Positions 13,972 to 50,462 of a DNA stretch of 64,000 nucleotides are shown piece after piece. Position 1 is the first letter of the stretch, and each line of letters starts with the position of its first letter. The stretch spans positions 9 through 64,008 of the IMG/VR virus record IMGVR_UViG_3300049061_000067, one strand, 5' to 3'. Position numbers and translations under genes: made by a program. The notes beneath the pieces are model-generated. The model searched no databases. It was given only the letters and a program-made list of their open reading frames with translations, and had not been told where the DNA came from. Origin of the DNA: a virus.

Positions 13972-15132
13972 CTACGCCAGCGCTCGAATGGCGAGGCTTT
14001 GCATGCGTAGCGATTGAGTCCTTAGCGCAGCCACGTCGATTGACTTCTCTTTCGGCTTGGGTTCGGAAGCGGCAAGTAACTCGTCAAGTGCGTCTCTTGC
14101 CGCCAGCACCTTTTTCCGATTTGAAGCAGAGAGCATCCGGCCTTCCTTGACCCGGTTCTCATGGTTGCGCTGCATATTGCTGGTGTGCTTCGCCAATGCG
14201 GATACCACATCGTCAAAGGACTCAAAGGAGTCGGATACCGGCTGACCTTTGAGGTAAAACTCGTCGTCAGAACTGTTCAAAAACTCTTCAATCTGCGCCG
14301 TGACCAGCGGAATCATTGTCGGCGGGTACTCGTTAAAGGCTTCGGCTACCTTCGCCTTCCAGTCCATGACTACGCCGGTTACATCGGAGTCTTTAGCTGT
14401 CTCGGCAATCTTGCGAACTACGCGGCGCAATGCAGACTCAACCTCCCATGTAGAGGGAGTCGTTTGGGCCATCTCCTCAGCGAGCATGCCTTTTAGTTCA
14501 CCGTCGACAATTGACATCTTCACGCCAGTCGCCATAGCCAGCTTCTGCATAGGTGAAGTCACCAGTGAATCCTCAATCGTTTCGCCTTTAAGCAAGATTC
14601 GGATACGAGAGAACTCCTGAGCCTTTAACAGGTTCGCGGCAAGTCGCTCGGGTTTGACAAACTGTGGCAACTGCTCTTTGTAGTCCTTAGCCTCGATATA
14701 CTGTTTCTGCTTGACGGAGTAACCAAAGGAGAAGCCCATCGTCTTGCCTGCTTCCATACGCTCGCGAGCCTTAGTGCGAATGTTTTGGGAGTCTGGCGTG
14801 GAGTGGAATTGAGACTTTACAAAGAAGCCGTAGTCGTCTTCTTTGGCGTCGACGGGGAACCCTACCGCCTCGGAGAACGACCAATCATGTGAGTGCGCGG
14901 TGAACCCGCTTTGAAGGTAATCTGAGATTCCATCCGCAAAGAAGCCCTTGACAACAATGTCGCCGCCTTCGTCAATCTCGCCAAAGACGCTACGGTATCC
15001 CTCAATCGTTCCTGACCCTTCGTCAGAAACTTTTAATGCTTTCAAGTCGATGAATTTGCGCTCTATCGGCATAAGCAAAAAGCCCGTCGCGGCCTCCATT
15101 GCTGGAAACCACGGCGGGCAGGTCGTCATCAC
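13972..15132 (-). CDS. Prohead protease (HK97/U35-like) with a C-terminal coiled-coil extension
   Basis: N-terminal ~170 aa resemble a Caudovirus prohead protease. Position immediately upstream of the capsid gene. Confidence 0.6.
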   Translation of the reverse strand: MMTTCPPWFPAMEAATGFLLMPIERKFIDLKALKVSDEGSGTIEGYRSVFGEIDEGGDIVVKGFFADGISDYLQSGFTAHSHDWSFSEAVGFPVDAKEDDYGFFVKSQFHSTPDSQNIRTKARERMEAGKTMGFSFGYSVKQKQYIEAKDYKEQLPQFVKPERLAANLLKAQEFSRIRILLKGETIEDSLVTSPMQKLAMATGVKMSIVDGELKGMLAEEMAQTTPSTWEVESALRRVVRKIAETAKDSDVTGVVMDWKAKVAEAFNEYPPTMIPLVTAQIEEFLNSSDDEFYLKGQPVSDSFESFDDVVSALAKHTSNMQRNHENRVKEGRMLSASNRKKVLAARDALDELLAASEPKPKEKSIDVAALRTQSLRMQSLAIRALA

Positions 15133-15989: not shown

Positions 15990-16400
15990 CTATTCCTTTG
16001 GTATTTCCGGCGATGGCATCCAGTAGCGCACGTCTACCCCTCTGCGCATCCCCTCTCGGGCGTCAACGTACACAAATCCCGCGTCGTCAAAGTACTCTCC
16101 GCTGATAGCCGCATCGGAGTAATTGAGATCATATTCAGCAAGCAATACACGTTGCGCATTCTCTGGCAACTTTTCCTTAACGCTAATAAAGTCAGACGCT
16201 AGCCATGCAGCCTCAATGCTCTGCTTGTCAAACTGACACTGATAACAGCCTTCTTCTTTCCAGCGGAGCTGAAACTGGCAAGGACACAACATCACACGTT
16301 GATACAGCCGGCGTAGCGCTTGGGCAACGGGATCAACACGGTCTCCCGCAGACCCACTAAAGTTTTCGATCTGCCGCTCAATTTCAGGCCTCATAATCAA
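15990..16400 (-). CDS. Hypothetical Cys-containing protein
   Basis: ORF track. Adjacent to the fucosyltransferase gene. Confidence 0.4.
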   Translation of the reverse strand: MIMRPEIERQIENFSGSAGDRVDPVAQALRRLYQRVMLCPCQFQLRWKEEGCYQCQFDKQSIEAAWLASDFISVKEKLPENAQRVLLAEYDLNYSDAAISGEYFDDAGFVYVDAREGMRRGVDVRYWMPSPEIPKE

Positions 16401-17169
16401 TTATCTGCCAGCCTTCGCTGTAGATATCCTCGCCAGTGATCGGCGTATATCGCGGTCCAAACCACGGGCGTGGTGCAATCACGCGCTTGTTTGATGCCTC
16501 ACCCAGAATCGCTGCCATTGCGCTGTAGGCTGAGTTGGCTATGATGAACGATGCGCATCTTTTAAGTAACCGGAAATCATCAAGGTAGTTGCGTCCCTCG
16601 CTGTAATCAACGTCACTACCAAACATTCGCTTGCACTCGGCAATATCGTCGCTGAAGACAAGAAACCGAGGCTTAGGTCTTCCAAACATGGTTGCGTCGT
16701 AATAGAACCGTTGCATTGCTGCCCGGTAGTAACTCTCAGGCACACGCGGGTGATAGCCGCCAGTGTAATCGCCGCGCCTGACATGAATGCCGACGTAATC
16801 GCTTTGTGCAGGCTCGTCAGTCATGCGCAGCCACCAGCAAACCTCGTCAAGACAGTGGACGAAATAGCGCACACTTTGCAGGTGCCCGCTGAGGCTGACA
16901 CTCTCCGTTAGGCGTACGTCGTGATAGCCCCAGTCAATGAAACGGTCAGGCAGTGTTGGACCATCGTAGACAGGCAGTGGGTTAACAAAGTGACGATATA
17001 CGTCGCAGTCCTCAGTTGAGCCAAAGCGTTGTTGATGGTCATGATTGATCCAGCGCGGAAAGGCGAAGTCAAAGCCGTTGCGACGAGCAATCCCTATCGT
17101 CGACGCCACCTGAAACAGACCGTTCGCGAATCGGCCGTAGCTGCCTAGGGCAGAAAATGTCACTATCAC
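16384..17169 (-). CDS. GT11-like alpha-1,2-fucosyltransferase
   Basis: N-terminal GRFANGLFQVAS resembles the GxGNQmFQyA motif. HVRRGDY matches the HxRRxD motif of fucosyltransferases. Also VFSDD and ANSAYSAMAA motifs. Confidence 0.6.
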   Translation of the reverse strand: MIVTFSALGSYGRFANGLFQVASTIGIARRNGFDFAFPRWINHDHQQRFGSTEDCDVYRHFVNPLPVYDGPTLPDRFIDWGYHDVRLTESVSLSGHLQSVRYFVHCLDEVCWWLRMTDEPAQSDYVGIHVRRGDYTGGYHPRVPESYYRAAMQRFYYDATMFGRPKPRFLVFSDDIAECKRMFGSDVDYSEGRNYLDDFRLLKRCASFIIANSAYSAMAAILGEASNKRVIAPRPWFGPRYTPITGEDIYSEGWQIIDYEA

Positions 17170-18119
17170 GACTGCTCACCCCACACTTGATGCACCATGC
17201 CTCCCCCTGATCCAGCATCTCCCACTCGTGCGCGATACCAGTCGAAGGTTGAGCAGAGTCCGTCATACAGGCTGATTTTAGCATGCCAGCCAAGCGCAGC
17301 GAGGCGCGTGCTGTCCAGTAGCTTGCGTGGCGGACCATCGGGCTTGCTGGCATCAAACTTTATCTCGCCACGATAGCCGACAACCTCAGCAATCATGTGG
17401 GCCAGTTCACTGATGGTGACTTCCTGCCCGGAACCTACGTTGATTGGCTCGCTGTCATTGTATTCAGCCATCAGGATTATCAGTGCATCAGCAAGATCGT
17501 CAACGTGAAGGAATTCGCGCAGCGCCTTACCAGTGCCCCAAAGCGTGATTGAGCGATCCTCGTTGCATGCTGCCCGGTACAGCCGCGACATTAGCGACGG
17601 GATCACATGCGCGTCGATGGAGTCAAAGTGATCGTTAGGGCCGTAGAGGTTGGTAGGCATGGCGCAGATGGCGTTAAAGCCGTATTGCTTGCGGTAAGCC
17701 TGGCACATCTTCAGTCCCGCAATCTTGGCAATTGCGTACCACTGGTTTGTCGGCTCAAGTGGGCCGGTGAGTAGTGCGTCTTCACTGATTGGCTGTTGTG
17801 CGGCACGCGGGTAGATGCAGGATGAGCCGAGGAACAGAAGTTTCCCGCAATCGTTTAGCCGGGCAGCGTTAATAACATTGCACTGGATTAGAAGATTGTC
17901 GCGGATGAAGTCAGCGGGACAGGTGGAGTTCGCGTGAATGCCGCCGACCTTGGCCGCCGCGAGATAGACATGCTGGATCTTATTACCCCAAAAGAAACCG
18001 TAGGTGTCTGCCTGGCTTCTTAGGTCAAGTTGCGCGTGGGTATGTGTAACAGCATCAGGTATACGCCGCAGCAATGCACTACCAACAAGTCCAGTGTGAC
18101 CTGCAATGTAAACGCTCAC
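17166..18119 (-). CDS. fcl: GDP-L-fucose synthase (GDP-4-keto-6-deoxy-D-mannose 3,5-epimerase/4-reductase)
   Basis: MSVYIAGHTGLVGSALLRRI (Rossmann GxxGxxG) resembles the E. coli Fcl N-terminus. Size and pattern of a short-chain NAD(P)-dependent epimerase/reductase (YxxxK region present). Confidence 0.75.
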   Translation of the reverse strand: MSVYIAGHTGLVGSALLRRIPDAVTHTHAQLDLRSQADTYGFFWGNKIQHVYLAAAKVGGIHANSTCPADFIRDNLLIQCNVINAARLNDCGKLLFLGSSCIYPRAAQQPISEDALLTGPLEPTNQWYAIAKIAGLKMCQAYRKQYGFNAICAMPTNLYGPNDHFDSIDAHVIPSLMSRLYRAACNEDRSITLWGTGKALREFLHVDDLADALIILMAEYNDSEPINVGSGQEVTISELAHMIAEVVGYRGEIKFDASKPDGPPRKLLDSTRLAALGWHAKISLYDGLCSTFDWYRARVGDAGSGGGMVHQVWGEQS

Positions 18120-21418: not shown

Positions 21419-21597
21419 GATCTCAGCCTCGCGTCTGACGCCTCAATCTCTGCGTACCATCGCCTGTATTCCTCGCGTGCAATCAGTGTCGCGTCAACCT
21501 CGCGCTGCTCTTTGCGACGAAGAACTGGTCCCACGACTAGGGCAATCAGGCCATAACAAGCCATTACGAATAGCGCTATCTGTGTTCCCGCTGTCAT
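21415..21597 (-). CDS. Small single-TM membrane protein (60 aa)
   Basis: ORF track. ATGA overlap with the GT25 gene stop. Confidence 0.4.
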   Translation of the reverse strand: MTAGTQIALFVMACYGLIALVVGPVLRRKEQREVDATLIAREEYRRWYAEIEASDARLRS

Positions 21598-22208
21598 CTC
21601 AGCCTTGCCTCCGACAACTCGAATATTTCCGTGTAATCATCAACCTCGTTACGTTGCCAGAGACTACTAACACGCGGCCTCTGCCACGCTACCATTGGTG
21701 CTACCACGAAAGCATTCAACTCAGGCAGCAGGTCACTCAGCGCGTTATCAAACATCTGTGCGCTAAATTCCGGCTGGTGCTCCAGTATACGTCTGACACA
21801 TGACTTGTGATAAGCAATTGCATGCGTGGTCCATGCGGCGCGTACTCGCCACAGGTGGTTGCTGAAACGCTCCGGGGCGGGCTCGCCATTGTTCCAGCAG
21901 ACCAGGTTTGCACCCAAGTAGAGGATATCCCAGTCGGCAGGGAGTTCGCTGATTGCTTGCGGCAGGTGGTTTAAGTCACGAAATACAACATCATCTTCAA
22001 GATGCAGCAGGCGATTATCGTCGGAGAACAGGAAGTCAAGCAGAATGTTGCGCTCGCTGTGGTTGAATGATTGATGTGGACCGATCTCTTTCACGGCATT
22101 GTACTTTTCCACGGTTAGGCCCACACGCTGGAATTCGGCGCATGCCTTGAGCCACTCGCCAGGGTTGGCAGTGAGACAGACACGGCGCTGGAAGAATGAC
22201 CAGTTCAC
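21594..22208 (-). CDS. GT25-family glycosyltransferase (LPS/LOS beta-1,4-galactosyltransferase-like)
   Basis: Resemblance to the GT25 (Lic2B-like) N-terminal region ...HLEDDVVF...DILYLG. Confidence 0.5.
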   Translation of the reverse strand: MNWSFFQRRVCLTANPGEWLKACAEFQRVGLTVEKYNAVKEIGPHQSFNHSERNILLDFLFSDDNRLLHLEDDVVFRDLNHLPQAISELPADWDILYLGANLVCWNNGEPAPERFSNHLWRVRAAWTTHAIAYHKSCVRRILEHQPEFSAQMFDNALSDLLPELNAFVVAPMVAWQRPRVSSLWQRNEVDDYTEIFELSEARLR

Positions 22209-22338
22209 TTACCACCTGCTTGTTCCTTGGACCACCCGCTGCTTCACGCTCAGCCACGGGTATTGCTGAGACGCAAAGCTGTAATGGTCCAAGGTGGCCA
22301 AAAGTTAGACCGCTAGTCCCACGCCTCCCCTGACGCAA

Positions 22339-22563
22339 TCATGCGCAAGGTTCGCTATTTCCCTTCATCGCTTCATTAATAACGTTAGTAGTTAATTTAT
22401 CAAGCAGAAATTGAAACCGACCGGAGCTACCCGTAGTTAACAGCACAACAGCCTCACAGGTTTTAAGTTCATCACCGGCCTCAATACACATAATTAATTC
22501 AGGGATCTCCGCTTCTAACCTTCGTAGATCACGTATTAAGGCTTGGCGTCTCTCCAGTCGCAT
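22339..22563 (-). CDS. Hypothetical protein
   Basis: ORF track. Confidence 0.35.
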   Translation of the reverse strand: MRLERRQALIRDLRRLEAEIPELIMCIEAGDELKTCEAVVLLTTGSSGRFQFLLDKLTTNVINEAMKGNSEPCA

Positions 22564-22832
22564 CCATACTCTCCGATCTTACGTTCTAGCAGGATTATTT
22601 GTCGCAGCCATGTCCGACTAGCTACAGGCCCGGGTCCACAAAAATCATCTCTGGGCCTGCGTGCTACGACGCTTTTCAGCGTCGGCTGCGAGCTTGGGCA
22701 ACTACTGAGTCATGTACTTGGCGTCCCTTTCCATGCTTGTTCGCGGCCCAAGCCCCTCAACGCAGCACCCTAGTTCAAGAGGGCCTTCACTACCCCTGCC
22801 GCCGAATGCGGCGAGCGCTGCGCTGATCCACA

Positions 22833-23066
22833 CTACTTGTTACAACTGCCGCCGTGACACATGATCAGGCAGCATTCATACTCGGACTGACAGATAGACA
22901 AGCATTCAGCGTTGCCGTTGCACGCTGCCTGACAGGCGTTGCGGTCCGTGATGCAGTGGGCACAGCCTGCCGGAGCGGCTTCCGTGTTGCTGGTGGTCCA
23001 TGCTTGGGTTGGAGTCAGTAACATGACTACAGCAAGCAGCATTAAAGCAAGGGTTCGTTTCATCAT
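22833..23066 (-). CDS. Secreted cysteine-rich peptide (signal peptide plus ~55-aa mature part with 10 Cys)
   Basis: MMKRTLALMLLAVVMLLTPTQAWT signal peptide. Strong RBS AAGGAAAC upstream. Start set at MMKR rather than the ORF-track start. Confidence 0.5.
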   Translation of the reverse strand: MMKRTLALMLLAVVMLLTPTQAWTTSNTEAAPAGCAHCITDRNACQAACNGNAECLSICQSEYECCLIMCHGGSCNK

Positions 23067-23388
23067 TTGAGTTTCCTTTTGGTTTGAGGTTGCGTAACTG
23101 TTACCACTTTTATCAAAGATTAAAGTTGCGGAGCAGGCGTGTGCCAACGCCTCGTTCTTAAGTCCCCACTCCGGCGTTATTTCGCGACCTTGGCTAATGT
23201 CCGTCGCACCTTTCGGAACGGGTTTTCCCCAGCGGCAACCTGTGGAGACCTCCGCAAACTTGTCAAAGATTGAATTGCGCGGGCGCGGTAGTCGAGTGGC
23301 ACTAAGAGGCTAGCATCACGGGAGCCTGCCTACCGTTCCTATCCCGCTGTTTAGTCGCATTGCTGCCGCCCGCGCAAACTTAAAATTG

Positions 23389-23811
23389 TCAATCGCTGCC
23401 AAGACTCTCAACAGCAGCTAACGCAGCGCGACAGATTGCTTCGGGTAGCAACTCGCTTGAATGGCTACCCTCGCATACGTCCAAGTCCACTTGCCAAAAC
23501 TCGACATTCCATAATTGAGCAGCCCAAAGACGCGGCATGAGATCTCGCTCACGCATCCTCTCAACCACCTGCATTGCGGCCGCAATGGATTCACTGTATT
23601 CAGGCACGCATCGCGTTTCTACGGGCTCAATGCCACCTTGCTGACGATAACGCATCTGCTTCCATTCCAGCATCTCTTCGCCGCAGTTCTCGCAAAACCC
23701 TTCACCGTTGTCTGCATGGGCCATATGAGCCATTGCCCGTTCAGCAACAGCCACATCAAGTTCGCGTCCACTCAGTTTTTTCACTGGTTCAATAGTCTTT
23801 TGTCTGTTCAT
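23389..23811 (-). CDS. Hypothetical protein (140 aa)
   Basis: ORF track. Confidence 0.4.
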   Translation of the reverse strand: MNRQKTIEPVKKLSGRELDVAVAERAMAHMAHADNGEGFCENCGEEMLEWKQMRYRQQGGIEPVETRCVPEYSESIAAAMQVVERMRERDLMPRLWAAQLWNVEFWQVDLDVCEGSHSSELLPEAICRAALAAVESLGSD

Positions 23812-23960
23812 TACTGCCTGCCCTCAAGCACCGCAACACGGCGCTGGAGGTCGCGGATTTCTGAATCTTTTATGGAAAACAATATGCTAGTCACTATTGC
23901 TATCATAAAAAGTAGTACCAGCAAAAACCTGATGTCGCCACCATATCCTCGCTCGCTCAT
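23811..23960 (-). CDS. Micro-membrane protein, 49 aa (single TM plus coiled tail)
   Basis: TAATG overlap with the downstream gene. Below the ORF-track cutoff. Confidence 0.3.
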   Translation of the reverse strand: MSERGYGGDIRFLLVLLFMIAIVTSILFSIKDSEIRDLQRRVAVLEGRQ

Positions 23961-24105
23961 TGCTCAAGTTTCCCTTCGCGGACAGTCCGTTTCTTCCGAC
24001 GATGCCTTTCCTGTGTAGCAATCCAGTAACCGAATGCGCCAGCCGCGAAGAAAAGTATAAAGTCAAAGTATGAGGTCAGTAACAATGTCCGTCACTTGTC
24101 GCCTT

Positions 24106-24270
24106 TCAACCGCGCCGAAGGTTTTTCCGCACTCGCTCTCGTTGCTCATCAAAATCGCGCTCCATACGGCGAAATCTTCGATAGGCAAGTACGCCGCCAA
24201 CGAGATTCGCGGCTACGAGCAAGATAACTACGCCCGCTATTAGATACCAGATCCATGTTGGCACGCTCAT
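24106..24270 (-). CDS. Micro-membrane protein, 54 aa (single TM plus basic tail)
   Basis: MSVPTWIWYLIAGVVILLVAANLVGGVLAYRRFRRMERDFDEQRERVRKNLRRG. Below the ORF-track cutoff. Confidence 0.3.
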   Translation of the reverse strand: MSVPTWIWYLIAGVVILLVAANLVGGVLAYRRFRRMERDFDEQRERVRKNLRRG

Positions 24271-24497
24271 CACCCGCCCTTTCCCTGCACGCCCGGCCTA
24301 CCTATTATTAACAATATGAACATGGGCCAAGTTACAAATTTCTGTCTTAAGCGGCGTCGGTGGATCGCTATGGGGAAAATCTTTACAGATCTTACAGCGC
24401 TCGCATTCCCACTTGTCCCATGCGTAAGTCGGGTAATGCTCAATCAGCACTCGCCAACGATGGTTACAGGTCTTTACTGTGCCACCTAATTTTCTGA

Positions 24498-24794
24498 TTA
24501 ACCACTGCTTAAATGCCGCCACCTTTCTGGCCCCTTCCCCTGCGTGCTGTTGAGGTACGATGATTCCAATTCCGCCATTGTCCGCTTGTGGTCCAAGTCC
24601 ATTTGTAAGCGCCACGCTTTCATAACCGCAGATCGACCTGCGTAATTACCAAAGTAAGCACCAACTGCCATGCCTGCGAGGATTCCTATGGCACTGTGCC
24701 AGACTATTGTAAGGGCGAATAGTAACAGGATAGCTATAGACCATTTCAGCGGATGCGGGACTACGTTCAAGCAGAGCTCGGACCTTTTCATCAA
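24498..24794 (-). CDS. Membrane protein (98 aa, 2 TM)
   Basis: ORF track. Hydrophobic segments WSIAILLLFALTIVW and AIGILAGMAVGAYFG. Confidence 0.4.
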   Translation of the reverse strand: MMKRSELCLNVVPHPLKWSIAILLLFALTIVWHSAIGILAGMAVGAYFGNYAGRSAVMKAWRLQMDLDHKRTMAELESSYLNSTQGKGPERWRHLSSG

Positions 24795-24853
24795 ATCCCA
24801 CGTGGCTGTTTACGGTAAAAGCGCTCATTTTTGCCCTCGCGTGCTGTTGGTGG

Positions 24854-25045
24854 TCACATCAATTCTTCATCAGACGCCGATATAGCACAAGAAACAGATC
24901 TGGCTCGCTCCTGTTTAACGTACCGTTCTACCGCAATTACTATCTCCGCGCTCACTGTACGCCGATTTGTTTCCGCCAGTTTCTTAATGCCGTTGAGCAC
25001 CTTGACGGGGAAATAGATGTGCATGTCCTTGATCTCTCGCTTCAT
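24854..25045 (-). CDS. Ribbon-helix-helix (Arc/MetJ/CopG-like) DNA-binding protein
   Basis: MKREIKDMHIYFPVKVLNGIKKLAETNRRTVSAEIVIAVERYV is a typical RHH beta-strand plus two helices. Confidence 0.55.
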   Translation of the reverse strand: MKREIKDMHIYFPVKVLNGIKKLAETNRRTVSAEIVIAVERYVKQERARSVSCAISASDEELM

Positions 25046-25109
25046 GGGATGAGAATGTAGTACAGAGGGATTGACATGTCAAGTAGTTGTCAAGTAGGAT
25101 TTATAACCA
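25046..25109. promoter_or_regulatory. Divergent promoter/operator region. Contains the 12-bp perfect palindrome TTGACATGTCAA, a tandem TGTCAAGTAG repeat and an 18-bp spacer to TAGGAT.
   Basis: Seen directly. Both -35 hexamers are halves of the palindrome. Confidence 0.45.
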
Positions 25110-25423
25110 TGAGAGCATTACACGCTATTGAAGAGTGCGCTTTTGAGCCTGAGTCGGCGGAAATCCGCTGCGTGGACTGTGGTAAACCAACAGGCGAGAT
25201 GGGCACCTGTCAGGATGTCGGGTTCTGCGCCAAGTGTCGAACTGTTTACGTGTCGGAGCCAAGCATTGGGGAAGCTGGGTTCAGCGAGATGTTGATCGCT
25301 ATGATTGAAGGTCGTAGATATAACAGCAGATACAAGCCCCGTCGTGTGCTTCATCTTTCTGTTAACGGTAGTCCAGTGTGCAGTGTTAAGGGTGGACCCA
25401 CATCCAATGACGACAAACAATAG
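25109..25423 (+). CDS. Hypothetical Zn-binding-like protein (C-x2-C ... C-x2-C)
   Basis: ORF track frame. Start set at the ATG after the TAGGAT -10 element. Confidence 0.4.
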   Translation: MRALHAIEECAFEPESAEIRCVDCGKPTGEMGTCQDVGFCAKCRTVYVSEPSIGEAGFSEMLIAMIEGRRYNSRYKPRRVLHLSVNGSPVCSVKGGPTSNDDKQ

Positions 25424-25432
25424 CGAGGCCAA

Positions 25433-25750
25433 TTGCAAACGATGCTTAACCAGAGGAGCCGCACACCAATGAAATACGTATTACGCAAGGGCACCAAAAG
25501 TAGATACATTGAAGCACCGTTTAATATCGTAGGCGGGCGATATGAGCTTAGAGAGTTAGCGCAACAAATTCTCACACAGACCGAATCTGAGAACTTTTGT
25601 TATGGCACTCTCTATATCGTTAACCTTGAACTACAAGGCTCACCAAACACTAAACCCACAGAATGGGAAGAATGGGAGGCACGCACCAATGAACACCACT
25701 GCCGCGTTTTACTATTCACTGCGCAAGTCATGGTATCGCAGGATTATTGA
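25433..25750 (+). CDS. Hypothetical protein
   Basis: ORF track. Confidence 0.4.
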   Translation: MQTMLNQRSRTPMKYVLRKGTKSRYIEAPFNIVGGRYELRELAQQILTQTESENFCYGTLYIVNLELQGSPNTKPTEWEEWEARTNEHHCRVLLFTAQVMVSQDY

Positions 25751-25954
25751 TTGGCTGGTGAGATGACGCACAGGGTTACATTCATCGCCAAGCGAGGACC
25801 AGATCACAGCAGAGATGGTCAGTACGGCTGGACTGTTACAGTAGATGGCACAGTCGTTTGCGAAGTCGATAGCGACGAAATGGACATGGCGGACAATGCG
25901 CTTAACCCACTTTGGCAAGCGTTAGGCGTTAGTGTTGAGTTTGATTACGACTAG
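25751..25954 (+). CDS. Hypothetical acidic protein
   Basis: ORF track. Confidence 0.35.
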   Translation: MAGEMTHRVTFIAKRGPDHSRDGQYGWTVTVDGTVVCEVDSDEMDMADNALNPLWQALGVSVEFDYD

Positions 25955-26190
25955 CGACTACCACTCACTGCGCAACAATCATTGGTTGATGTAGACGTGG
26001 GATTAGATTCTTTACCTCTGTTGTCAATCAGCGCCAACGTTCTGATAAACTCCTGCTTTTCTTTTTCGCTAAACCGAGCAGGGAATCCACCGCCCGCAAA
26101 TCGATGGGCGTTTACCGCGTCAACGTGGGCGTACCACGCCCGCTCATACTCAGCGTACTTCCTTACATAGTTCGGCTGTTGTTGGCTCAT
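25951..26190 (-). CDS. Hypothetical protein
   Basis: ORF track. Confidence 0.35.
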   Translation of the reverse strand: MSQQQPNYVRKYAEYERAWYAHVDAVNAHRFAGGGFPARFSEKEKQEFIRTLALIDNRGKESNPTSTSTNDCCAVSGSR

Positions 26191-26225
26191 TTCACAACCT
26201 CACTTCTAAACTTCTAAGATCATCT

Positions 26226-27113
26226 CTATTGATTTATCCAAACGTGAAAGCACCTGCACCAGTCGCCCCCGGCGCACTCGGGATTTGGCGCAGGTTGTAG
26301 ATCGTCTTCGTTAGTCGCCGTCTTGCCATCTTCATCTGCGCATGGCTGACAAACGTTCTGGTCTAACAGCGCACTGTACTCCACGCGCTCCCACTCATCA
26401 CGGCGGTTTTCGGCTTCGTCGCTGCGACCAATGCTGATAACACGATTAGCCAGCCCTGTAGCCGCACGGTCGATATAGCCGACTGAGCCGGTAGCAATCT
26501 CGCTGGTGACAGCAGCAATCAGCGCTGCGCCTGTCAGACCCAACAGCGAGTGACGCGCGGCGGCGGCGATAATGCGTGATTGCACGTCGTTGGTAACGCG
26601 GCTGGTGGTGAGATCGGTGAGCAGGTCAAGCTCGTCAAAGTCGTCTGCGTCAGGCGCGTCAGCCTTCTGGCCCAACTCGGCAGCCACCAGCATGCGTCCC
26701 TGTCGATGCACCGCCACAAGCTGCTTGCTTAGGTCCGTGCGCATCGCGTCAGGCACCTGCAACACCAACTCGTGATAGTCAGCAGGCTTCACTTTCCTGA
26801 TGCGTTTCAACCCGTTCGTGACTAGCTCGCTGCGCAGGTCCAGCAGCACTTTGCCAATGGACTCTTTGGCTGACTCCTGTGCCTGAGCAACGCCCTTGAC
26901 GGCAATCTTCTCGTGCTCTTTAGGCTCACGGCTAAGCGTTAGACCGTCGTAGTCGAAGGACTTGCGCTCGAGGTGGTTCAAGCCAAGGTGAGTGTAGAAG
27001 GCGGTGGCTTTAGCTTCGCCGTGTGTGTCGATAGCCTGCTGCCAGCCATGTGCCAAGCGCAAGGCAGTTGCCGCTTCAAGTTTGAGTTGTAGTACTTTAG
27101 CTTGCAGGCTCAC
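26226..27113 (-). CDS. Head morphogenesis protein (Mu gpF / SPP1 gp7 family)
   Basis: Position downstream of the portal gene. ~295 aa with a conserved C-terminal Cys cluster (CQPCADEDG...CAGGDWCRC), typical of the family. Confidence 0.6.
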   Translation of the reverse strand: MSLQAKVLQLKLEAATALRLAHGWQQAIDTHGEAKATAFYTHLGLNHLERKSFDYDGLTLSREPKEHEKIAVKGVAQAQESAKESIGKVLLDLRSELVTNGLKRIRKVKPADYHELVLQVPDAMRTDLSKQLVAVHRQGRMLVAAELGQKADAPDADDFDELDLLTDLTTSRVTNDVQSRIIAAAARHSLLGLTGAALIAAVTSEIATGSVGYIDRAATGLANRVISIGRSDEAENRRDEWERVEYSALLDQNVCQPCADEDGKTATNEDDLQPAPNPECAGGDWCRCFHVWINQ

Positions 27114-28654
27114 GATTTCATAAACTCTCGCATCTGCTCTTCCATCGACTGCATCATTCGATCCACGTCAGCAAACTTTGCCAGCGAGGCAGGGTCAGTG
27201 GGCGTCACTGGTTTTGGCTCCTGTGAACCGTCACCCATTGCAATAACCTGCTCGGGGCTGGTAGGAGTGCTAAGCGATGGAATAATTCTGTACTCGCCAA
27301 GTGGTTTGCCTACCGGCTTAAGCCCGCATGCTGATAGCGCTTGGTCGTAGGTAATTAATCCGGCATTGAATTGCTGCACGGTACGCTTAACCACCGCATC
27401 CTTGTCCTCTTCCAACACGCGCACGTTGGACGTGTCAAACCAGAATTCAGCATCGTCAAGGTCGTCAAACTCAGGCTTCAATTGCCAGTTGATCTCCTCG
27501 GCCCAAGTGGTTTGCAGTGGGATGATTACTTCCTCGTAGCCTTGCTGGCGGGCCTGCTCACTGGAAGCGTAGCTGGTGCCGTTCTGCAAACCGACCAACA
27601 GGCCCAGCGTCGTAGCCGGGATCTGGAGGACCGCCGCCACACGTGATTCAGGGATTAAGCGCAGTGCTGACAGGTCCAACTCCTGCGGACTAAACCCCAC
27701 CTTCTCGAAGTCAATTGGCTCACTGAACACAACAGGCTCGCCAGCGTGATCGCCGGTGGTTTTGCGCAGCCAGCCTTCCTTCATGGCGGCAGCCTTAGTG
27801 GCGTCAACCCTGACTTCCTTGTCCTTGGGCGAGATCACCGGCACCTGAATGCCCATATTGCGCATGATGGCGGCAGTGAACTGGGCCATCTTATCGTCGC
27901 CGTAGAGTTCCTTAACAAGGGGCTCAAGCGGACTGCGCGTGCGCCGGTTTTCCATCAGTGGCCCACGTTTCAGGTGCAGCACGTCGGCGGCAGGCCATAG
28001 CTCAGGTGCCTTGCCGGGCACGTCAAACTGGTAGTGGCTGATGAAGGGGTCAAGGTTGGCTTCCTGGGGCACGGGAGGCGAACCATTGTCGCCGGGCCAG
28101 CGTGGACGTATCAGGTAGTGGGGAATGTGCCAGAGTTCGACTACCTGACTGGTCACACTGCGCACCTTTTTGAAGCGCACGCCACCGTCAACCCACCAGT
28201 CGACTGATGCAGCATGCGAGTAGTTGGCCCAGACGTGATGCTTGTTGGGGCGACGGATGAGTTGAGCGAGAGGATGCAGCGGGTCGATTGCAACGTCACC
28301 GGCTTTGTTGGTGCGGCGGATTACGGGCTGGGCTTCAGGCAGCCGCGTGCCGGTGTAGTTGAACACGCAGGCAACCAGCGAGTGGCCGTCGAGTGCGCCT
28401 ACTTCGCGGCGATAGTCAATAGCCGACGTTGGGCCTCGATGCCGAAAGCGATAGTCAATGAAGTTGTCGTACGTGGCGGCTGCGGATGAGAAGTCAGGTG
28501 GTGCGGTAGCAGCGGCTTTCTGCTCGCGAGGCAACAGTGCGCGATAGGCGGTTGTGACACGCTTGATTAGACTGAATTCAGCCATTGAGGCCTCACTTCT
28601 TTCTGTCCAGATGGCGGTCAAACCAATAATAGAAGGCAACCAGACTTCCGACAA
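27110..28654 (-). CDS. Portal protein
   Basis: 514 aa, immediately downstream of TerL. Composition is typical of a portal protein. Confidence 0.65.
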   Translation of the reverse strand: MSEVWLPSIIGLTAIWTERSEASMAEFSLIKRVTTAYRALLPREQKAAATAPPDFSSAAATYDNFIDYRFRHRGPTSAIDYRREVGALDGHSLVACVFNYTGTRLPEAQPVIRRTNKAGDVAIDPLHPLAQLIRRPNKHHVWANYSHAASVDWWVDGGVRFKKVRSVTSQVVELWHIPHYLIRPRWPGDNGSPPVPQEANLDPFISHYQFDVPGKAPELWPAADVLHLKRGPLMENRRTRSPLEPLVKELYGDDKMAQFTAAIMRNMGIQVPVISPKDKEVRVDATKAAAMKEGWLRKTTGDHAGEPVVFSEPIDFEKVGFSPQELDLSALRLIPESRVAAVLQIPATTLGLLVGLQNGTSYASSEQARQQGYEEVIIPLQTTWAEEINWQLKPEFDDLDDAEFWFDTSNVRVLEEDKDAVVKRTVQQFNAGLITYDQALSACGLKPVGKPLGEYRIIPSLSTPTSPEQVIAMGDGSQEPKPVTPTDPASLAKFADVDRMMQSMEEQMREFMKS

Positions 28655-28706
28655 TTATAGCGAGTCCAATAGCAGTGAGAACGATGTTCCCGACAATCAT
28701 AGCCAC

Positions 28707-30044
28707 TTAGTACATCTCCAGTTCACGTGATGCTTGCGCCAGTCCCAGTTCTGTCATGGCCCACACCATTGCATCCATGCGGTTTGGGCTGGCATCTCCC
28801 GGCGTCCACAGGCACATCTCGTCTTCCAGTTGCGCAAAGTTCCTGCCTACATGATGTGCGCGTCCATGCTCGTACACGCTGGCAATAGGTTCTGCTCGCG
28901 TTTGCTTGCCGCGCGAGGCGTGCACTAATTTAACACGAATGCTTGGGTCAACCGTAGAAATTGTCAGGGAAACCATTTCACCGCCATTGTTCGCTTCGGC
29001 AACAATGCAATTGGCTTGGTGGTGGTGATAAGCCTTGACTGCTGCTGTAGCCCAGGTCTTGGGCGAACCTTGCACGGAGTTGTCAGCAATAACGTAGCCA
29101 ATATTCGCCGTCTTGCCTGCGGTGATAATGCCTGCTTCGTCGCCGGTTGAACTGGCGCTTGGATCGATAGCAACCACAATGCGATCCAGGTCCGGCGCTT
29201 CGTCAACTCGCAGGGACTCGATCAACTCACGCTTCCACAGTGCTCCCGGCGCTTCGTCAACGTCTTCGGCCTCAATCTCCATGCGATAAGCCAGCGCCGT
29301 CATATCGTCGCTGATTTCACTAAGCGCTTCCTTGCTGAGATACGGGTTGTCGTGCGAGGTGAAGTGAAAAGCTGCGTAGCGCACGCTGGTTAACGCCTCA
29401 CGCTGATATTTCTTGAATAGCTTGCCTGCATGTTGCGGGTCATTGGCTTTGCTAACGGAGCGTGAATGCAAGCTCGGCGGCGTGTAGATGAACACTGCAT
29501 CACCGTCGTTATCAAGCAGCATTGGAGCGCCGACCAGACCCCATGCATCCTCATTCATCAACTGCCATTCGTCAAGGTACAAGTCGTCAGCATAGTCGCC
29601 GCGCAATGAGTCGGCGTTCCATGCGGTCTTAGCGCGAATGCGCTGCTCGGTGCCGGGAATCTCCAGCGTGTGGTAGGTTTCGTTTTTAACCACCTGACCC
29701 GCGTCGATGGCCGGTTGCAGTGCGCGCACCACCGTCACCCAATAGCGATGGATCTGTTCTTGTGTTGGTGCTGCGTAAAGCTGCCTGCGCCCTTTGAGGA
29801 AGCGCTTGACCGAGCGAATTGCAACGCCAACTGTCTTGCCGCCACGACGTCCGGCACGGACCACAATGCGCTTGGCGGTGGAGTCGACGAAGGCTTGTTG
29901 TTTAGGGTGATCGGCGGTAGCGGGAAGGTTGACAAGGAGTTCAGTTGATCGCTTTGCTCTCAGCACTCGGAGAAATATCGGCTTCTCTTCCGGCGTCAAG
30001 GTTTGCCATCTCTGCCTCAAATTGTCGGTCAAGTTCTGAGACAT
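28707..30044 (-). CDS. Terminase large subunit
   Basis: Walker A VRAGRRGGKT. ATPase plus C-terminal nuclease-like half. 445 aa. Confidence 0.8.
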   Translation of the reverse strand: MSQNLTDNLRQRWQTLTPEEKPIFLRVLRAKRSTELLVNLPATADHPKQQAFVDSTAKRIVVRAGRRGGKTVGVAIRSVKRFLKGRRQLYAAPTQEQIHRYWVTVVRALQPAIDAGQVVKNETYHTLEIPGTEQRIRAKTAWNADSLRGDYADDLYLDEWQLMNEDAWGLVGAPMLLDNDGDAVFIYTPPSLHSRSVSKANDPQHAGKLFKKYQREALTSVRYAAFHFTSHDNPYLSKEALSEISDDMTALAYRMEIEAEDVDEAPGALWKRELIESLRVDEAPDLDRIVVAIDPSASSTGDEAGIITAGKTANIGYVIADNSVQGSPKTWATAAVKAYHHHQANCIVAEANNGGEMVSLTISTVDPSIRVKLVHASRGKQTRAEPIASVYEHGRAHHVGRNFAQLEDEMCLWTPGDASPNRMDAMVWAMTELGLAQASRELEMY

Positions 30045-30353: not shown

Positions 30354-30560
30354 CTATCCTACTGACTTACGCGGCTTCCGGCCCGCTCGCTGCATGTTGG
30401 GATTAGGCTCGAACTTCGCCAGATCACCCAACCGAATGCGTACCGCACTGACTCGCGTGTTGACTGTCTTTAACTTACCCGCGTCAATTGCCGCGTAGAT
30501 CGCCTGCCGTGAGACGCCCTTGAGCTCCGCTGCCTCGGTGATTGTAACCAACTCGCCCAT
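30354..30560 (-). CDS. HTH_17 / excisionase-AlpA-like DNA-binding protein
   Basis: ITEAAELKGVSRQAIYAAIDAGKL is an HTH. Paralogue at 33321-33557. Confidence 0.5.
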   Translation of the reverse strand: MGELVTITEAAELKGVSRQAIYAAIDAGKLKTVNTRVSAVRIRLGDLAKFEPNPNMQRAGRKPRKSVG

Positions 30561-30662
30561 TGATGAACCATGCTAGCGCCTGAGAAGAAAATAGTCAAGG
30601 GTAAATTATTTGCTGAATAAACGCTTGACACGCGTAAATAATTAGCGTAGGATGGCTTCACT
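30561..30662. promoter_or_regulatory. Divergent sigma70-type promoters: rightward TTGACA-17-TAGGAT (30625-30653) and leftward TTGACT-17-TAGCAT (30598-30570), with an AT-rich near-palindrome between them
   Basis: Seen directly. Consensus hexamers with ideal 17-bp spacers. Confidence 0.45.
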
Positions 30663-30851
30663 ATGACGCATGTGAATATAACAACTGATGTAGCTTCTGA
30701 GCGCTTACCAGAGTGCCCACCTGATTGCTTAAACACAAAGACAGGCAACTGTCCACGTTGTTACGAGTTTACAGGTGACGGTTGTGCGCATGGTCCAGTT
30801 TGCGAGAACTGTCAAGACGATTTGAAGGGTCGAGATGATGGCAAAGGTTGA
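30663..30851 (+). CDS. Cys-rich small protein (62 aa)
   Basis: ORF track. Immediately downstream of the rightward promoter. Confidence 0.4.
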   Translation: MTHVNITTDVASERLPECPPDCLNTKTGNCPRCYEFTGDGCAHGPVCENCQDDLKGRDDGKG

Positions 30852-40135: not shown

Positions 40136-40474
40136 ATGTCAATGGAAGAGCTACACGACTCAATTGGAATGGAAGATGGTGATGGTCCGCTAACCCAACG
40201 CGAATTAGACTTTCTCTGGGAGCAACTGGAAACCGCTGGACCAGTGTTCAGGAAACGGGTTATAGACGCTCTCACGGTCCCATCCGCTAAGGCGCTTATA
40301 CAAGGTATCGCTAGAGAGGTTCGAGCGACGGCCCGCACCAACACCATCAGCGAGTGCATTGAGAAGCTGAATGCTCTATCTATCCTGCCGTTCGACGCCG
40401 TACCCTATATACGCCGGGATGACGCGGTGGCGGCACTGGAAGCGCTGGTTGAAAGTAAGCAAGAAAGTTGTTGA
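40136..40474 (+). CDS. Hypothetical protein
   Basis: ORF track. Confidence 0.4.
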   Translation: MSMEELHDSIGMEDGDGPLTQRELDFLWEQLETAGPVFRKRVIDALTVPSAKALIQGIAREVRATARTNTISECIEKLNALSILPFDAVPYIRRDDAVAALEALVESKQESC

Positions 40475-40507: not shown

Positions 40508-40744
40508 ATGCGAACACGAAAAGGCTACAGAGCGTGTCCAACGTGTGGCGGCAATGGTCAGGTGATTGATCAAGTCGAGCAAGGTCGACGGTTGCGTGCG
40601 CTGCGCAAGGCTGCAAATAAGGGGCTACGTGAAGTAGCGGCAATTATCGGTTACTCGCCTGCGTATCTCAGTGACCTTGAACTTGGACGCCGTCAGTGGA
40701 ATGAATACCTCATTGAGCGATTTAAGCAAGCGGTACGTGCGTGA
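40508..40744 (+). CDS. XRE-type HTH regulator with an N-terminal CxxCxGxG zinc knuckle
   Basis: CPTCGGNGQV, then LRALRKAANKGLREVAAIIGYSPAYLSDLELGRR (HTH_XRE-like). Confidence 0.5.
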   Translation: MRTRKGYRACPTCGGNGQVIDQVEQGRRLRALRKAANKGLREVAAIIGYSPAYLSDLELGRRQWNEYLIERFKQAVRA

Positions 40745-50252: not shown

Positions 50253-50348
50253 TGGACTTACCATTACAAGGCGTCAGGGCTCAGCGGCGTCTCGTTTGCC
50301 GTGTAAATAATCATTGACATCTAACCCGCTCGGATTATGATTCAGATT

Positions 50349-50462
50349 ATGAGGAAATGCCAACGCTGCAAGTACGAATGGAAGCCGAAAACGGCTAATC
50401 CAAAGGAATGCCCAAACTGTAAATCAAGAAAGTGGGAGAAAGATGCTAAACGTACACGTTAA
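50349..50462 (+). CDS. Mini zinc-ribbon protein (37 aa), paralogue of 57518-57658
   Basis: MRKCQRCKYEWKPKTANPKECPNCKSRKWEK. Promoter TTGACA-16-TATGAT at 50296-50323. Confidence 0.35.
   Translation: MRKCQRCKYEWKPKTANPKECPNCKSRKWEKDAKRTR

Follow-up and report, generated by a model that had tools for sequence, protein, structure and literature searches.

A putative autoregulated ribbon-helix-helix switch with overlapping divergent promoters in a variable slot of the late gene string of an uncultured tailed phage

In this study, we describe a putative regulatory switch in 64,000 nucleotides of viral DNA (IMG/VR record IMGVR_UViG_3300049061_000067, positions 9 to 64,008), referred to below as the window, which always means this whole 64-kb stretch. 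The window is essentially the whole, ~64-kb genome of an uncultured tailed phage, the identical RHH (ribbon-helix-helix) protein being on record for a contig of 64,008 nt, and it was compared with related loci, which carry L-numbers. A minus-strand gene for a small ribbon-helix-helix (RHH) protein and a cluster of small plus-strand genes, the cargo, point away from each other there. We consider it probable, with room for doubt, that they form a compact switch at a recombination hot-spot downstream of the gene for a MuF-like head protein, in which a CopG/Arc-type RHH autorepressor would control two overlapping, divergent sigma70-type promoters. The module lies between the MuF gene and the prohead protease gene, in agreement with the first-pass annotation of this DNA, which had placed it inside the late operon.

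A divergent promoter pair sharing one palindrome

The elements of the switch region are the following.

24854-25045, minus strand: RHH (Arc/CopG-type) regulator of 63 amino acids, based on its open reading frame (ORF), Pfam and a family profile
25054-25082, minus strand: P(-), the predicted RHH promoter, with -35 TTGACA at 25082-25077, a 17-bp spacer and -10 TACATT at 25059-25054
25060-25076, minus strand: the 17-nt spacer of P(-), TGTCAATCCCTCTGTAC, unusually conserved
25071-25082, no strand: perfect 12-bp palindrome TTGACATGTCAA, comprising both -35 hexamers; candidate operator core
25071-25100, plus strand: P(+), the predicted promoter of the plus unit, with -35 TTGACA at 25071-25076, an 18-bp spacer and -10 TAGGAT at 25095-25100
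25077-25086 and 25088-25097, plus strand: two copies of the direct repeat TGTCAAGTAG, spacing 11 bp

The start codons of the RHH gene (25045, minus strand) and of orfA, the first plus-strand gene (25109, plus strand), are separated by 63 bp. The first-pass annotation had given 64 bp; its divergent layout, the perfect 12-bp palindrome whose halves are the two -35 hexamers, and the TAGGAT -10 element are all found in place. Each promoter scores 10/12 as a sigma70-like promoter. Since either -35 box lies within the spacer of the other promoter, P(+) and P(-) overlap, and polymerase could occupy only one of them at once. The palindrome is present as a single copy in the 64 kb even when one mismatch is allowed (0.12 expected in shuffles), and this uniqueness fits local autoregulation.

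In both directions, the ATG follows the -10 element after 8 nt; on the RHH side these are CTCATCCC, without a Shine-Dalgarno site. The pattern TTGACA-N17-TAnnnT-N8-ATG is observed twice, against 0.01 expected per window. Given the 8-nt distance, the lack of a Shine-Dalgarno site and the pyrimidine-rich upstream sequence, the mRNAs of both first genes, RHH and orfA, are probably leaderless.

The tandem TGTCAAGTAG repeat, which had been listed beside the palindrome in the earlier description of the control region, is present as well, but it is probably no operator repeat. Copy 1 is decayed in L042 (TGTCAACTGG) and L009 (TGTCAAGCAG), and copy 2 is invariant. Copy 2 is contained in a proximal block, TTGTCAAGTAGGAT (25087-25100), that consists of the 3' part of the spacer and the -10 element of P(+). 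L009, L042 and L043 carry it unchanged, and it is also found in L008, L010 and L025, where the regulator is of the helix-turn-helix (HTH) type. Because copy 2 is thus part of a promoter block that HTH-regulated relatives carry too, we do not take its two copies for RHH half-sites; the repeat probably marks the junction of the regulator cassette with the cargo-side promoter block. A second flavor of the P(+) block, GATTTGCTAGGAT, occurs in the RHH locus L031 and in the HTH loci L013 and L015.

The RHH regulator and its candidate operator

The window RHH alone matches the Pfam families RHH_5 (9.5e-5) and Arc (1.1e-3). We aligned it with ten IMG/VR homologues (alignment A1); additional homologues came from Joint Genome Institute (JGI) metagenome contigs. 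All 11 family members match Arc (best 2.1e-5) and RHH_5 (best 3.2e-5), and the 11-sequence profile matches the structures of single-chain Arc (1u9p, 2.7e-7), Arc (0.004-0.01; 1baz 0.004) and CopG (1b01 and 2cpg, E ~0.06). Consequently, the prediction of an Arc/CopG-type RHH protein on the minus strand, made earlier from the window sequence, is sound at the family level. The family members measure 48-63 amino acids with short, variable tails, i.e., a bare domain as in Arc and CopG. Substitutions relative to L042 are distributed 3/6/15 over the codon positions, with enrichment at the third. Positions Q9/N11/R13 of Arc, which we take to be its DNA-reading strand positions, align with D7/H9/Y11 of the window RHH, of which H9 and Y11 are invariant in alignment A1. 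A tblastn search of the RHH against cultured phages gave no match, and no relative was found with the RHH profile in 185,579 species genomes.

The palindrome recurs together with the regulator. In four more independent contigs (L009, L042, L031, L005) the motif TTGAC-NN-GTCAA is found once per locus and at equal distance from the RHH start; TTGACATGTCAA is identical in L009 and L042, L005 has TTGACACGTCAA and L031 has TTGACAGGTCAA. The arrangement of a -35 box, 17 nt, a -10 box and 6-8 nt to an ATG or GTG can be read in most of the 20 aligned RHH loci, a few of which need a weaker -10. In L059, the most distant RHH homologue, an ordinary Shine-Dalgarno leader takes the place of the leaderless layout. 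The best inverted repeat overlaps the -35 box in 12/20 RHH loci, including some without a divergent gene. Three operator classes can be distinguished: TTGAC-NN-GTCAA (class I; window, L009, L042, L031, L005), CTTG-ACG-CAAG (class II) and (C/T)AGTTG-A-CAACT(G/A) (class III). The class-III loci have no divergent gene, their upstream neighbor being the 3' end of a co-directional gene for 1,400 amino acids, and there the dyad therefore cannot be a second -35 box. Furthermore, the outer pair of the dyad shows a compensatory change between L004 (CAGTTGACAACTG) and L046 (TAGTTGACAACTA), and the P(-) spacer is invariant at 11/17 positions in the five independent class-I loci, whose RHH proteins are 44-63% identical. 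The spacer may thus be part of the operator. Taken together, dyads at the -35 box in loci without a divergent gene, the compensatory change and the spacer conservation speak for a site at which a protein binds across the -35 box and spacer; autoregulation would follow from this.

Regulator exchange in sister phages

The MuF gene is common to 26 IMG/VR loci (58-87% identity). In these loci the distance from MuF to the next conserved gene, p204 (window 21594-22208), ranges from ~5 nt (L019) to ~4 kb (window), and because this gap varies so much in length, the switch can be said to sit in a hypervariable slot of the structural gene string.

We scanned the MuF-p204 interval of the relatives for the promoter geometry of the window. 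Divergent leaderless-type promoter pairs are present in L008, L010, L012, L013, L014, L015, L025, L030 and L032. In all nine loci the gene co-directional with the late operon encodes an Xre/Cro HTH protein of 66-70 amino acids, matching HTH_3/HTH_31 above the Pfam cut-offs, in the place of the RHH. In L013 the micro-ORF pep, described below, is itself the first leaderless-type gene at a TAGGAT promoter. HTH and RHH proteins often share a C-terminal tail, ...TNGxRKERxK, the codons of which provide the AAGGAG Shine-Dalgarno site of the next gene; this tail appears to mark the other cassette boundary. Since the same P(+) blocks occur with either regulator and the tail joint is shared, it appears that a unit made up of the regulator with its operator and the two -35 boxes is exchanged as one cassette between conserved joints, an HTH with an operator of its own taking the place of the RHH in sister phages. 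The cargo is unlike between the window, L042, L009, L043, L031 and L002, and pep25 is kept. As judged from these comparisons, the window module is one allele of a family-wide switch slot that alternates RHH and HTH regulators. Several family members are without any switch, as in L019, in which the conserved genes lie ~5 nt apart.

Two further occupants of the slot were seen. In L022 (6287-6793) an apparent HNH-type homing endonuclease of 168 amino acids (by eye) lies beside the switch and truncates pep (...RRLLD*). In L018 (8935-9300) the slot holds a leaderless-type protein of 121 amino acids with an RHH-looking N-terminus (RTIRVDDEVWAAIQAL) and a C-terminal half giving weak, below-cut-off double zinc-ribbon matches; it may be a third regulator type.

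The plus-strand unit

The plus-strand unit comprises four ORFs and a repeated junction motif.

25109-25423, plus strand: orfA', 104 amino acids, a truncated member of a family of small, Cys-rich phage proteins
25454-25473, plus strand: junction/ribosome-binding site (RBS) motif AGGAGCCGCACACCAATGAA, found again at 25674-25693
25469-25750, plus strand: orfB, 93 amino acids, with the family core in residues 1-68 (25469-25672)
25689-25766, plus strand: pep25, a micro-ORF of 25 codons, MNTTAAFYYSLRKSWYRRIIDWLVR, with its own Shine-Dalgarno site GGGAGG and a stop that overlaps the orfC start (ATGA)
25763-25954, plus strand: orfC, 63 amino acids, an orphan with the best codon score of the cluster, of which only identical copies were found

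Of these, orfA, orfB and orfC outscore the overlapping minus-strand ORFs on codon usage. Minus-strand alternatives across 25118-25918 were ruled out by codon usage, substitution pattern and homology. The first-pass annotation had described three plus-strand genes; their coding status is borne out, whereas the count changes to four ORFs with pep25 included, orfA being frameshifted and orfB having lost its stop. As it also observed, the cargo proteins have no recognizable function: nothing was found in Pfam, and searches of PHROGs, PADLOC and NCBIfam gave no meaningful match for the cluster proteins or their neighbors. Against IMG/VR, orfA, orfB and orfC retrieved only a 20-residue fragment, which is the pep25 region in another frame.

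For orfA, 20 homologues were found, all from a Cys-rich family of 113-135 amino acids; in other phages its relatives are located in long arrays of small early genes, close to an HTH switch or to replication genes, and are not paired with an RHH. The ending GGPHP...NCKRC is invariant in 18/18 full-length homologues. Relative to all of these, the window copy has a 1-nt insertion (an extra C near 25397, in GGTGGACCCACATCC, placed by comparison with L042), and the ancestral C-terminus (PHPMTTNNSEANCKRCLTRGAAHQ) can be read on in the +1 frame as far as a TGA at 25470-25472 that overlaps the orfB ATG (ATGA). The frameshifted sequence is identical in three other assemblies and is therefore not a one-off assembly error; it could reflect a pseudogene, a systematic homopolymer error or +1 slippage at CCC-A. 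Substitutions relative to the relatives are enriched at the third codon position (18/9/37). An AlphaFold2 (AF2) model of the family, with a predicted local distance difference test score (pLDDT) of 58, was too poor for a fold search.

Ten orfB representatives of 65-75 amino acids match residues 1-68/70 only. At 25673-25675 the window has TGG where L043 has TAG, inside the near-tandem AGAATGGGA/AGAATRGGA. As the relatives end at the core and L043 retains the stop, the 93-residue product predicted in the window would be a read-through, and its 25-residue extension overlaps pep25 in another frame. The AF2 model of orfB (pLDDT 78) gave no fold match in PDB or BFVD.

In contrast to the other cargo, pep25 is the only predicted plus-strand product with family-wide conservation. 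The window and L009, L042 and L043 each have an unbroken copy, which is coupled through ATGA to four different downstream sequences and stays open even in L043, where the orfB frame is broken. A version of 24-25 codons (consensus MTNAELYYhLRKsWvRRLLDWIVG) is present in 12/26 MuF-family loci, always antisense to MuF; the micro-ORF was seen at L008, L010, L012-L015, L022, L024, L025, L030, L031, L042 and L043. Its variable sites are distributed 9/2/17 over the codon positions, a clear sequence signature of protein-level constraint. None of three pep25 variants (window plus two relatives) is recorded in a collection of 15 billion proteins.

The junction motif, with the core AGGAGCCRCACACCAATGAA, gives two matches against 0.01 expected and is also found at gene joints in L042 and L043. 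At its distal end the unit meets the late genes: orfC and the convergent p79 overlap at their stop codons, without a predicted terminator between the plus unit and the late genes. A weak terminator-like hairpin on the minus strand (25667-25655) was discarded as chance, six such hairpins being found against ten expected.

Leaderless-type promoters across the genome

An ATG 7-9 nt past the -10 element was found at 6/8 of the strongest -35/-10 sites in the window, each opening an ORF of 37-104 amino acids: 25071 (+), 25082 (-), 30625 (+), 30598 (-), 40471 (+) and 50314 (+). Two of these form a second divergent region (30560-30663, within 30354-30851), with TTGACT-17-TAGCAT on the minus strand (30598), TTGACA-17-TAGGAT on the plus strand (30625) and both ATGs 9 nt past the -10. 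The former heads the gene for an HTH_17 protein of 68 amino acids, followed by TerS and TerL, the latter that for a Cys-rich protein of 62 amino acids and the early genes; this region is probably the main control region of the phage. At 40471 (+) the ATG, 7-8 nt on, opens a zinc-ribbon-plus-HTH protein of 78 amino acids (40508-40744), and the plus-strand promoter at 50314 similarly has, 7-8 nt on, the ATG of a zinc-ribbon protein of 37 amino acids (whole stretch 50314-50462). Leaderless starts thus appear to be a genome-wide habit of this phage.

Genome context and neighboring genes

The surroundings of the switch were assigned as follows.

13972-15132, minus strand: prohead protease, with tail genes beyond
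16384-17169, minus strand: family-11 glycosyltransferase, amid structural genes
17166-18119, minus strand: NAD-dependent epimerase/dehydratase, amid structural genes
24646-24828, minus strand: p60, gene-called, the first gene downstream of the RHH gene
25951-26190, minus strand: p79, short and variable, located between the plus unit and MuF and facing orfC convergently
26226-27113, minus strand: MuF-like head protein
27110-28654, minus strand: portal
28707-30044, minus strand: TerL
30354-30560, minus strand: HTH_17 protein of 68 amino acids, then TerS
~32-49 kb, plus strand: replication genes (D5 primase-helicase, PD-(D/E)XK nuclease, AAA_24, DnaN clamp, helicase-methylase)

No integrase, CI-type repressor or partition gene was found among the 26 larger ORFs scanned. 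Neither an Rfam search of the window nor a permissive one of 24500-26300 found anything, and megablast of 22000-30000 against cultured phages gave no match.

The sigma70-type promoters, the Shine-Dalgarno sites, the DnaN clamp and the epimerase matches point to a bacterial host. The epimerase has 55-61% identity to proteins of many bacterial phyla and does not single out one host. The top deposited match of TerL, with 64% identity, is 'Methanosarcina virus MetMV' (MK170447.1, L045), the archaeal host of which is an in silico prediction only (PMC7164591). None of 16 queried window proteins (portal, MuF, RHH, cargo and neighbors) matches the 19-kb stretch around the MetMV terminase, and MetMV was therefore set aside as uninformative for the switch.

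Downstream of the RHH gene, p60 starts 25 nt past the RHH stop, has a GAGGG Shine-Dalgarno site and is separated by no terminator; it is probably co-transcribed with the RHH gene from P(-). An overlapping ORF, p98 (24498-24794, minus strand, TTG start), has clear transmembrane segments, and codon scores do not decide between the two; the overlap is possibly due to a frameshift or a mis-call. At 23811-23960 a single-pass membrane protein of ~49 amino acids carries a conserved C-terminal RDLQRRVAVLE motif. This protein repeatedly follows a regulator of either type, RHH or HTH, and in many cases the two genes overlap at their stop and start codons (L005, L008, L009, L024, L032, L046, L047, L053); it trails the regulator in phages outside the MuF family too. 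In the unrelated phages L003, L004, L006 and L007 the RHH gene heads small membrane proteins and, by eye, an apparent large family-2-type glycosyltransferase. The RHH regulator may be linked to glycan-modification cassettes. On the other side of the plus unit, L009 has no p79, and ~10 nt separate its MuF stop from the pep25 end.

Discussion

Based on the anatomy of the locus and its relatives, we propose that host RNA polymerase would fire both P(-) and P(+), and that the two would compete since their -35 hexamers form one palindrome, each in the spacer of the other. P(-) would produce a leaderless mRNA for the RHH and the downstream small membrane-protein genes, and P(+) a leaderless mRNA, running against the late operon, for the shuffled small cargo genes and the conserved 25-residue protein. 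RHH dimers that build up would then bind the dyad and the conserved spacer over both -35 boxes and close both promoters. The outcome would be a short, self-limiting pulse of the anti-late unit and of the RHH-led genes. Because both first genes lack a Shine-Dalgarno site, they would be translated well only from locally started transcripts and not from late read-through RNA. In addition, the plus unit meets late transcription head-on without a predicted terminator, so that shut-off of P(+) would also relieve the interference with the late operon.

Several points weigh against this model. On its own, the window RHH remains below the Pfam gathering cut-offs (22.5 vs 26 bits; 19.1 vs 20.4). The three operator classes differ though the predicted DNA-reading residues are alike, and for this reason the dyad and spacer are no more than candidates for the recognition element. 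In loci with a divergent gene, the palindrome could be explained by promoter function alone. The model also assumes that the host uses sigma70-type promoters and translates leaderless mRNAs efficiently. Finally, two cargo genes are damaged in the window, and part of the plus unit may therefore be decaying.

Which output of the switch matters can be seen differently. In a transcriptional-interference gate, an idea that we put forward tentatively, antisense transcription from P(+), entering the late operon at its MuF/p79 end, would block or delay late read-through to the structural and glycan genes until the regulator shuts P(+), and the cargo genes would be passengers; this is compatible with the autorepressor model and differs only in the relevant output. 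The plus unit is indeed convergent with the late genes, with a stop-to-stop overlap and no predicted terminator, its position and anti-late orientation are kept in 12/26 family loci where the cargo is not, and damaged cargo genes are tolerated. Yet the protein-level constraint on pep25 (9/2/17) indicates that at least one product matters, and the family members without a switch (e.g., L019) indicate that a gate is not essential. In a wider speculation, to which we likewise give a low probability, the slot would be a family-wide, hot-swappable timer into which any small repressor, of the RHH or the HTH fold, could be placed together with its operator. Its output would be the basic, aromatic micro-protein of 24-25 residues made from the anti-late RNA; the micro-protein and/or convergent transcription would time the passage from packaging to capsid, glycan and tail genes, and leaderless starts would limit translation to local RNAs.

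It appears rather unlikely that, with both promoters real, the palindrome is merely two -35 hexamers, with the RHH binding elsewhere or controlling only its own downstream membrane-protein genes and with a plus unit that is constitutive or otherwise controlled. TTGACA being the consensus -35 box, two abutting boxes give a palindrome automatically. The RHH family also occurs without a divergent partner at the head of small membrane-protein/glycosyltransferase operons (L004, L006, L007, L016), and the proximal block of P(+) is independent of the regulator type. However, dyads at the -35 box are also present where the divergent promoter is absent, with one compensatory change, and the spacer is conserved more than a promoter needs. 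Moreover, as the -35 boxes abut, a protein near the RHH -35 box must cover that of P(+). For autoregulation at a -35 dyad, the closest analogue is CopG (RepA) of plasmid pMV158, which regulates itself via a dyad overlapping the -35 box of its own Pcr promoter. CopG is likewise a minimal RHH protein (~45-60 amino acids, no extra domain), but it serves plasmid copy-number control from a single promoter with a leadered mRNA, and its recognizable homology to the window RHH ends at the fold.

In phage P22 immI (mnt / Pmnt-Pant / arc-ant), the operators overlap promoter elements of divergent overlapping promoters. This is the closest analogue in position and logic, and Arc is the closest solved structure to the window RHH. 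With an Arc-type RHH, divergent overlapping promoters and a variable stretch within the late operon, the window resembles immI, where RHH repressor(s), divergent overlapping promoters and a variable region within the late operon are found (PMC8022706). A secondary immunity of the immI type, in which the RHH would, like Mnt/Arc, silence antirepressor-like cargo in a lysogen or carrier state, is nevertheless improbable. In Pfam, PHROGs, NCBIfam and PADLOC, neither orfA, orfB and orfC nor the cargo of the relatives gave an ANT, KilAC or Bro-type match or any other, no integrase, CI-type repressor or partition gene turned up among the 26 larger ORFs scanned, the absence of an RHH relative from 185,579 species genomes means that no prophage copies were seen, and the cargo differs among close relatives. 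The window switch departs from immI in further ways: it contains a single RHH gene where immI has two, both of its first genes appear to lack a leader, its regulator runs with the late operon and its cargo against it, an HTH protein replaces the regulator in sister phages, and the identity to Arc is at the profile level only. As an antirepressor is absent and lysogeny functions were not found among the ORFs scanned, we do not regard the switch as an immI member, and the mini immunity region suggested at first reduces to a positional and logical analogy.

The antitoxin-operator logic also suggested by the first-pass annotation leads to a module of the type II toxin-antitoxin or abortive-infection kind in which the RHH would be the antitoxin. 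RHH antitoxins (ParD, CcdA, FitA, RelB-like) are common and combine an N-terminal RHH domain with autoregulation at a palindromic operator, 4/11 family members show a weak FitA-like RHH match (best E 0.0037), and small function-unassigned proteins adjoin the RHH; we nonetheless find such a module highly improbable, because the putative toxins are divergent from the RHH and not co-transcribed with it, the cargo varies between close relatives, the first cargo gene is frameshifted with the RHH retained, the RHH is a bare domain of 48-63 amino acids with a variable tail and neither a C-terminal toxin-binding region nor a downstream cognate toxin, no neighbor matches PADLOC or NCBIfam and the downstream small membrane-type ORFs match no toxin model.

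Two other known systems share features with the proposed autoregulated switch. The lambdoid cI/cro region also has divergent promoters that share an operator region and a small repressor made from a leaderless mRNA, as the lambda cI mRNA from PRM is leaderless and the RHH mRNA apparently so. Lambdoid immunity regions, moreover, carry heterologous repressor/operator alleles at one position, and Cro-like HTH_3/HTH_31 proteins occupy the slot in sister phages. In contrast, the window switch has a single regulator, no antagonistic pair and no CI-like C-terminal domain, and its slot lies in the structural operon rather than in the early region, the phage having a separate main divergent region (30560-30663). 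As in morons, presence and content vary among syntenic genomes (0-4 kb between MuF and p204), the module has its own promoter, and its function is unrelated to the structural neighbors. Unlike a moron, it brings its own repressor, no flanking terminator was found, and, since the family conserves both pep25 and the promoter block, part of the insertion behaves as core.

To our knowledge, small repressor/operator cassettes in late operons are known from P22 immI, and few have been described outside cultured enterobacterial phages. Here, one promoter architecture, with overlapping divergent promoters and both first genes apparently leaderless, is seen to persist through exchanges of the regulator fold, RHH or HTH, and of the cargo, and the likely breakpoints can be read, one within the P(+) spacer and one at the shared RBS/tail junction. 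The analysis also corrects the gene map of the locus to four plus-strand ORFs, two of which have lesions, and brings to light a conserved micro-protein that had escaped gene callers. Should the model be confirmed, such switches would provide compact, orthogonal repressors, operators and promoters for use as parts, and promoter competition and head-on transcription could be studied in a tractable viral operon.

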